A stretch of DNA of 16,877 bases from Promethearchaeota archaeon (GTDB taxonomy: Archaea > Asgardarchaeota > Lokiarchaeia > Sigyniarchaeales > SOKP01). A program made the position numbers and the translations under genes. The notes below the pieces were generated by a model that was given only the letters and a program-made list of their open reading frames with translations, had not been told where the DNA came from and searched no databases. Each line of letters begins with the position of its first letter. The stretch's first letter is position 1. Shown here in pieces: positions 15,859 to 16,814 of the stretch. The stretch lies in NCBI GenBank assembly GCA_048940925.1, contig JBHLOC010000005.1:1-16877 (forward strand), written 5' to 3'.

Positions 15859-16236
15859 TTATACTTTTGCTAATTGTTCATATAATCTAGGCAAGACATC
15901 CTTAAATGTATCATCCGGAATTTTTTCAAGAATTTCAGCTGCAATGGTTTTCAAAATTTCTCTATATTTTCCAGGTTTTTCATCCCGACGAAGTAATAAG
16001 GCAACTACATAATTCTCTACAGATATAAAATCTTGTCCTACACCTGAGAAGAAAGAAACTACTTTATTATTTTTAAGAGCGATACTCGCAAAACCAGGTT
16101 TAAGAGATTGATAACGGTGTGAACTATAAACCTGCGTCAGTAAGTTGTTTGTGATCTTTAATGTATTCGGATAAAAGCCTTCATTTATTGGGCCAATTTC
16201 ATTATCCCAACGAATTACAAGAATCCCTACAGGCAT
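15859..16236 (-). CDS. Stand-alone uDENN/longin-like domain protein
   Basis: 125 aa. The N-terminal ILVIRWDNEIGPINEGFYP fits the uDENN/NPR2-type hairpin (hhhxF/WDxxxGPxhxxxYP), followed by a helix, three strands and two helices (longin topology). Confidence 0.65.
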   Translation of the reverse strand: MPVGILVIRWDNEIGPINEGFYPNTLKITNNLLTQVYSSHRYQSLKPGFASIALKNNKVVSFFSGVGQDFISVENYVVALLLRRDEKPGKYREILKTIAAEILEKIPDDTFKDVLPRLYEQLAKV

Positions 16237-16460: not shown

Positions 16461-16476
16461 AATAAAGCTTTTAAAA
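16461..16476 (+). promoter_or_regulatory. Putative BRE/TATA box of the tRNA gene
   Basis: A-rich AATAAAGC followed by TTTTAAAA (16469-16476), 25-32 nt upstream of the mature tRNA 5' end. This is weak evidence in such AT-rich DNA. Confidence 0.45.
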
Positions 16477-16524
16477 GAAAAACAGCTATTTTTAAGCATT
16501 GGAGGGGTTACCGAGTTTGGTCAA

Positions 16525-16576
16525 TTTGATCAGGTCAATCAAGGTCTTAAAATGCTCTTGTACGGGTCAAGACTAT
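16525..16576 (+). other. tRNA intron 1 (52 nt, D-loop, position 21/22)
   Basis: Central helix GGTC/GACT, bulges AA|T and AT|A, intron helix TTGATC/GGTCAA. Confidence 0.88.
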
Positions 16577-16604
16577 AGGTGCTGGACTTAAGATCCAGTG
16601 GCAA

Positions 16605-16632
16605 TTCGTCAGCATTTTGCTGAAGAGCCAAA
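16605..16632 (+). other. tRNA intron 2 (28 nt, loop of the variable arm)
   Basis: Central helix TGGC/GCCA, bulges AA|T and AA|A, intron helix TC/GA plus the hairpin TCAGCA-TTT-TGCTGA. Confidence 0.8.
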
Positions 16633-16651
16633 AGGCCTTCGTGAGTTCGAA

Positions 16652-16683
16652 TCCTGCTTAACCACTTCGGTGACAGCAGAAAG
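16652..16683 (+). other. tRNA intron 3 (32 nt, T-loop, position 59/60)
   Basis: The T stem acts as outer helix; central helix TTCG/AGAA (3 bp plus a G.A), cut sites AA|T and AG|T. The internal hairpin TGCT..CAC-TTCG-GTG..AGCA ends in a C-UUCG-G tetraloop. Confidence 0.85.
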
Positions 16684-16814
16684 TCTCACCCCCTCCACAC
16701 TTAAATTTAGAGTTAAATGCATTTACTCTCAAATTAAGCTTAAATCAAAAAAAAAAGATATAAAAGATTTTAGTCTAAAAATATGATTCAAGAGTTAATA
16801 TTAACTGGTCAACT

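Follow-up and report, generated by a model that had tools for sequence, protein, structure and literature searches.

A leucine tRNA gene cut by three introns in a lokiarchaeial genome, one of which probably carries a docking tag for a box C/D guide RNA

The stretch of Promethearchaeota DNA analysed here (16,877 nt; referred to as the window) contains a tRNA-Leu(UAA) gene that is cut by three introns. Judged by comparison of related sequences, they differ in conservation: introns 2 and 3 are gained and lost among members of the genus, whereas intron 1 is fixed across the order and holds a conserved sequence tag that has co-evolved with one arm of a guide RNA. Intron 1 thus probably has a job. 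The reading we consider likely is that of a working gene whose first intron is kept through a tag for a guide RNA, with the guide acting on the precursor before splicing. What the guide would do there, and above all whether it methylates the wobble base of this tRNA, is put forward with considerably more reserve.

The gene lies on the forward strand. Exon 1 (16501..16524; 24 nt) comprises tRNA positions 1-21, i.e. the 5' strand of the acceptor stem and the D arm up to A21; exon 2 (16577..16604; 28 nt) runs from position 22 to the loop of the variable arm and includes an intact anticodon arm with the anticodon TAA at 16589-16591; exon 3 (16633..16651; 19 nt) extends from the 3' strand of the variable arm to A59, and exon 4 (16684..16697; 14 nt) covers positions 60-73, with the CCA only partly encoded. 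They are separated by intron 1 in the D loop at 21/22 (16525..16576; 52 nt), intron 2 in the loop of the variable arm (16605..16632; 28 nt) and intron 3 in the T loop at 59/60 (16652..16683; 32 nt), all on the same strand. The initial annotation had proposed this division, in which introns make up 112 of the 197 nt, and its coordinates proved exact. Its description of the locus as a GC-rich island holds only in relative terms (48% GC vs 30% for the genome). It had also seen a geometry like that of bulge-helix-bulge (BHB) motifs at every junction: the motifs of intron 1 (four of four central pairs, one of them G-U; 6-bp h', 2-bp h) and intron 2 (four of four central pairs; 2-bp h') are indeed canonical, but that of intron 3 is only relaxed (three of four central pairs, one G.A), the T stem serving as h. 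Within intron 1, whose longer and shorter versions differ by a 5' segment, another BHB motif is conceivable at about 16525-16547; a nested or tandem intron was nevertheless rejected, as no relative was found that cleanly lacks that piece alone. A putative TATA-like element was read from the sequence at 16469..16476 on the forward strand, 25-32 nt 5' of the tRNA, and similar T/A runs precede the gene in several relatives.

The joined exons show the cloverleaf, conserved bases, long variable arm, UAA anticodon and A73 of an archaeal class II tRNA-Leu. ARAGORN called the spliced 85-mer as tRNA-Leu(taa) with up to 110% of the score threshold; the other seven splice states yielded no gene in six cases and a spurious Ala call in one. 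The expectation that standard finders miss such a gene was borne out, with no gene called by ARAGORN in the raw locus and no Rfam match at E<=10. Alignment of the spliced form to a tRNA profile scored 34.8 with 19 stem pairs, compared to a mean of 3.1, a maximum of 22.4 and at most 16 stem pairs for 300 shuffled sequences.

An Asgard host had been suggested from the letters alone, and the neighbouring gene (15859-16236 of the window, minus strand, divergent from the tRNA gene) is 81-98% identical to records that come mostly from Promethearchaeota MAGs; on this sequence identity, it places the genome among the Promethearchaeia (Loki) MAGs. Its 125-aa product had no Pfam match, and in one cluster of look-alikes 19% of the members were annotated as NPR2 (longin-type), which we regard as a lead only. 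The genome has a size of 4.8 Mb, a GC content of 30% and a given assembly contamination of 8.4%. It encodes two paralogues of the splicing endonuclease EndA, one with and one without the catalytic Tyr/His/Lys by inspection, as well as RtcB and fibrillarin. A census of non-coding GC-richer islands, which is incomplete and undercounts neighbouring introns, recovered 44 tRNA genes, about 70% of them with introns. No second tRNA-Leu(UAA) was among them, and the 13-mer of the anticodon arm occurs once in the genome; a looser match to this arm falls inside a coding frame, and the other Leu(taa) call by ARAGORN, on contig C13, is a tRNA-Glu(CUC) with a D-loop intron. The heavy use of UUA noted at the outset was confirmed (223 of the 417 Leu codons in the window; 53%).

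Outside the window lies a tRNA-Ile(UAU) with three introns (C3:52900-53084, minus strand), which ARAGORN called once it was spliced. No tRNA-Ile(CAU) was found, and a search of four Loki genomes (two consisting of a single contig) gave no TiaS; TiaS is present in family f12. This suggests a decoding of AUA by tRNA-Ile(UAU), as known from eukaryotes, rather than via agmatidine, and our literature search found no Asgard report of such decoding. ARAGORN also called a tRNA-Sec in this genome (C3:50049-50141).

Comparison with relatives, which the initial annotation had named as a check, separated the three introns. Syntenic orthologues with the same junctions are found in dozens of genomes, and inserts 2 and 3 are absent from relatives at exactly these junctions. 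Removing the inserts gives the sequence of intron-free relatives; they are therefore introns, and two of them (2 and 3) show turnover. Within the genus, all 18 genes have the D-loop intron, 6 of 18 have intron 2 and 11 of 18 have the T-loop insert, and other variable-region introns occur at two additional sites. Intron 1 was present in 81 of 81 related genes and is fixed across the order, orthologues without it being known only from other families. Further introns were seen in this gene in some relatives, either near 15/16 or adjoining intron 1 via a one-base exon (L065, L070, L073, L078, L079, L092, L094, L095; L016). The D-loop intron of tRNA-Leu(CAG) in this genome (C43:107272-107412, minus strand) resembles that of tRNA-Leu(UAA) in some relatives, and its tag is decayed.

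Intron 1 is free to vary in length and sequence apart from a GGGTC motif near its 3' end, which is kept in 80 of 81 related genes and occurs in 2% of shuffled introns. Here, the motif belongs to the tag GGGTCAAGA (16564..16572, forward strand). In other Asgard families a tag of the form GGG-YY-RGA is found in the tRNA-Leu(UAA) intron wherever this lies, at 21/22, at 37/38 or in the variable arm, and it fills most of one intron of 17 nt. Introns of elongator tRNA-Met contain it too, in the same lineage-specific variant, as do those of tRNA-Ser(CGA) in two families, while most of the remaining introns of five additional genomes lack it. In this genome the h' helix of the intron 1 splice motif takes up part of the tag; in many relatives the tag is unpaired or otherwise paired. 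Several readings of the tag were rejected. A role as a guide in cis, directed at the anticodon of the same tRNA, was discarded because the CT variants pair incorrectly and a box C is missing from introns of 17 nt; K-turn and H/ACA readings lack a conserved partner strand. An 11-nt pattern across the phylum occurred only at chance level. On inspection, neither intron 1 nor its orthologues showed a box C or D, and there was no Rfam match.

A partner was found in trans. A search of family f18 for the complement of the tag returned a box C/D RNA that matches the tag of that genome over 10-11 bp through its D' guide and the anticodon loop through its D guide. The counterpart in the present genome is an unannotated RNA similar to sR47 (C86:42364-42458; 95 nt, between purN and an EF-2 gene). 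Its D' guide is complementary to the tag in a duplex of 6 bp, one bulged A and 2 bp (about -11.7 kcal/mol), which is weaker than in most families. This RNA is closed by a 13-bp stem and has D' and C' boxes near consensus and non-consensus boxes C and D; it had no Rfam match, and its homologues have near-canonical boxes and sub-threshold Rfam C/D matches. Strict box C/D scans and scans of the non-coding DNA for guides first missed it, since it was hidden by a spurious antisense frame of 87 codons, and another partner candidate, on C51, turned out to be a coding gene. A strict consensus scan of the whole genome likewise gave no convincing canonical box C/D RNA despite the presence of fibrillarin; as the outer boxes are degenerate in the genus, more guides may be hidden. 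Pattern searches recovered intergenic homologues in about 17 families and none in families f12, f24, f26, f28 and f17; of the 19 same-genus genomes searched, 17 gave a match, and 16 of these pass inspection.

The D guide is invariant across families and the D' guide varies. In this gene, the D guide pairs over 11 bp with 16585..16595 on the forward strand (tRNA positions 30-40), with U34 at 16589 opposite guide position -5; the pair at N+5 is G-U, not Watson-Crick. In tRNA-Leu(CAA), which matches the D guide perfectly and has no tag in this genome, C34 forms a Watson-Crick pair at N+5 within a duplex of 9 bp or more, and tRNA-Met has, by our reading, two mismatches to the guide. Separate guides for tRNA-Leu(UAA) or tRNA-Met were not found in this genome, nor was there a match to a guide of the sR-tMet type (RF02163), which spans the anticodon and the intron start. 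Homologues of sR-tMet exist in families f12 and f18 as unannotated RNAs that also resemble sR41 and lie directly 3' of a probable eIF5A gene (L248:1463-1521 and L249:1464-1521). In f12, with its own sR-tMet-like guide, the tRNA-Met intron starts with GGG and has no tag. The 37/38 intron of tRNA-Trp in one f12 genome (G047, L159) is a classical box C/D guide; the tRNA-Trp intron of the genome studied here has 29 nt and no boxes.

Covariation links the guide to the tag. Across 12 families, compensatory changes were seen at guide positions -2, -6, -7, -8 and -9, in a table that leans towards pairing as its sites were chosen for good pairing, and position -5 of D' is a C-G pair with the tag in 12 of 12 families. 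When guides were permuted against targets at the family level, cognate pairs averaged -15.1 kcal/mol vs -13.0 +/- 0.5 kcal/mol (p value about 6e-5, which overstates the significance because the families are kin). Nine predictions were made in advance, and the outcome was readable for five families: f19 and f20 matched clearly and f7 partly, while f6 and f15 (Leu only) failed, both having the guide and no tag in tRNA-Leu(UAA). Within this genome, pairing with the guide ranked the tRNA-Met intron first and intron 1 second among 42 introns. When both guides were summed, tRNA-Leu(UAA) ranked first of 44 genes, but its best D' site was an exon stretch.

An ATC opens 29 of the 32 introns found at 37/38 in the target tRNAs, compared to 2 of 37 in other tRNAs, which leaves the D-guide duplex intact in the unspliced precursor; shared ancestry could contribute to this. 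In pre-tRNA-Leu(CAA) and pre-tRNA-Met of this genome (C31:15934-16097; C10:34877-34995, minus strand), intron ends at 32/33 and 37/38 copy the adjoining exon bases, and the guide target is thus continuous even before splicing.

Taken together, these observations are best explained by the following sequence of events. The 197-nt precursor would be cut at its three BHB sites by a two-subunit splicing endonuclease and the exons joined by RtcB, with introns 2 and 3 as recent and optional additions. Intron 1 would be old and under selection because its tag pairs, as the covariation indicates, with the D' arm of the sR47-like guide. While intron 1 is still present, the tag may anchor the fibrillarin complex on the precursor, the D arm pairing with positions 30-40 and placing base 34 in the N+5 register, so that the tag compensates for an imperfect match to the anticodon. 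One guide could in this way serve tRNA-Leu(CAA) by perfect match, and tRNA-Leu(UAA), elongator tRNA-Met and, in some families, tRNA-Ser(CGA) by their intron tags. The likeliest product would be 2'-O-methylation at position 34 ahead of splicing; in Pyrococcus, tRNA-Leu(CAA), -Leu(UAA), -Met and -Trp carry a 2'-O-methyl group there (PMC7994747). For tRNA-Leu(UAA), methylation at 34 is the least certain step and is proposed only tentatively, because the target pair is G-U and a Watson-Crick pair at N+5 has been reported as essential (PMC6009581). The general form of the proposal, that a portable docking tag, kept in whichever intron is available, lets a single box C/D guide methylate imperfectly matched wobble bases before splicing, including U34 via G-U, is one to which we likewise give a little less than even credence. 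Since the tag overlaps the h' helix here, guide binding and splicing may compete.

An alternative explanation, which we find possible though slightly less probable than the methylation of U34, is that the pairing of tag and guide is real and U34 of tRNA-Leu(UAA) stays unmethylated. The guide would then be a splicing chaperone or timer, or the intron, whether still part of the precursor or already excised, would fill the second guide and so boost Cm34 on tRNA-Leu(CAA); incidental methylation of a G in the tag is possible. A guide complex is more active when both of its guides are occupied. The two mismatches of tRNA-Met, the constant C-G pair at D' position -5 and the overlap of the tag with h' fit this explanation, and the G-U target pair breaks the N+5 rule, which makes a chaperone or timing role a serious rival, conserved mismatches at N+5 having been interpreted as non-methylating interactions (PMC6009581). 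However, the tag occurs in those tRNAs whose anticodon is an imperfect match to the D guide and which are known with Nm34 from Pyrococcus (PMC7994747), and the introns of tagged tRNAs preserve the D-guide duplex.

It is unlikely that all three introns are neutral, tolerated insertions like those published for Asgard archaea. The tag would in that case be left over from a copied D loop or reflect a constraint on folding, and rRNA or a mature tRNA would be the target of the D' guide. The tag does resemble the exon stretch GGTCAA and forms h' in this gene; the D' guide pairs equally well or better by energy with G-rich sites of mature tRNA-Pro, -Gly, -Val and -Tyr, and rRNA stretches match it over 8-10 bp in some genomes. 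Such sites pair about as well as the tag, and a second target of the D' guide in a mature tRNA or rRNA is possible. However, the tag moves with the position of the intron, is shared with tRNA-Met and changes in step with the guide, it is unpaired or differently paired in many relatives, and the best rRNA matches showed no obvious single shared site in the genomes checked, which were compared unaligned. A decaying pseudogene or an assembly artefact that is never spliced, for which the relaxed motif of intron 3 and the contamination figure might speak, is highly improbable given the intact cloverleaf, the single copy and the orthologues with identical junctions.

With the docking tag as the preferred reading, the new part is the arrangement of the intron 1 tag and its guide, of which no report was found in the literature searched; sR47, sR-tMet and the pre-tRNA-Trp intron come nearest to it. 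The three-intron gene alone is relevant to annotation only. Current papers on the retention of many tRNA introns in Asgard archaea treat these as tolerated insertions; the sequence of intron 1 shows selection and its partner can be named, and the in vitro C/D system already available offers a test. If true, the oldest intron of the tRNA-Leu(UAA) gene has been retained for a function, as an archaeal parallel to the intron-dependent wobble modification of eukaryotic pre-tRNA-Leu. The tag would also supply a target for a class of 'orphan' second guides of tRNA-directed sRNAs, which amount to about 80% in Pyrobaculum (PMC6009581).

Asgard tRNA genes with several non-canonical BHB introns have been described before (Valentin-Alvarado 2024, PMC11291895; Goswami 2026 preprint, bioRxiv 10.64898/2026.10.13.758758), including sites in the D and T arms, genes missed by annotators, recent gains and losses and two EndA paralogues; a three-intron gene is therefore not new as such, and the intron proliferation that the initial annotation proposed for an Asgard lineage agrees with the intron-rich tRNA set found here but was already published. 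Introns were reported in 92-95% of the tRNA genes of Atabeyarchaeia and Freyarchaeia (PMC11291895), and a census of 90 genomes found 2.2 inserts per gene in its focal families, with up to five in one gene and 30% missed by tRNAscan-SE (bioRxiv 10.64898/2026.10.13.758758). The published work differs in its focal families (Freyr-, Jordi- and Atabeyarchaeaceae) and in introns per gene, with about one in this genome vs the 2.2 above, and the main text of the preprint names no Loki lineages and makes no mention of guide RNA, methylation or intron function. Multi-intron tRNAs of Thermoproteales likewise have three introns, non-canonical sites and relaxed BHB motifs; copying between tRNA genes, common in that order, is rare in Asgard archaea and fails to explain their pattern (bioRxiv 10.64898/2026.10.13.758758).

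Among guide RNAs, sR47 of Pyrococcus abyssi, which directs Cm34 of tRNA-Leu(CAA) (PMC5558902, PMC3413156), shares the target core and likewise places base 34 in the N+5 register. The Asgard RNA differs in that its second guide pairs with an intronic tag of other tRNA precursors; in Pyrococcus, tRNA-Leu(UAA) and tRNA-Met are served by guides of their own (PMC7994747), unlike what was found here. The guide sR-tMet/sR49, for Cm34 of the intron-containing pre-tRNA-Met, is also trans-acting and pairs with intron bases that are likewise GGG-pyrimidine (PMC2584109), a euryarchaeal situation which the untagged tRNA-Met intron of f12 resembles. Such pairing means that modification must come before splicing. 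There, a single helix formed by one guide spans the exon-intron junction, whereas the Asgard RNA uses its second guide and a free-standing tag at varied intron positions. The intron of pre-tRNA-Trp, itself a box C/D RNA (Cm34, Um39), is likewise a tRNA intron that takes part in wobble methylation. Unlike it, intron 1 has no C/D boxes and its tag is found even in introns of 17 nt, so that the intron would be the target and not the guide.
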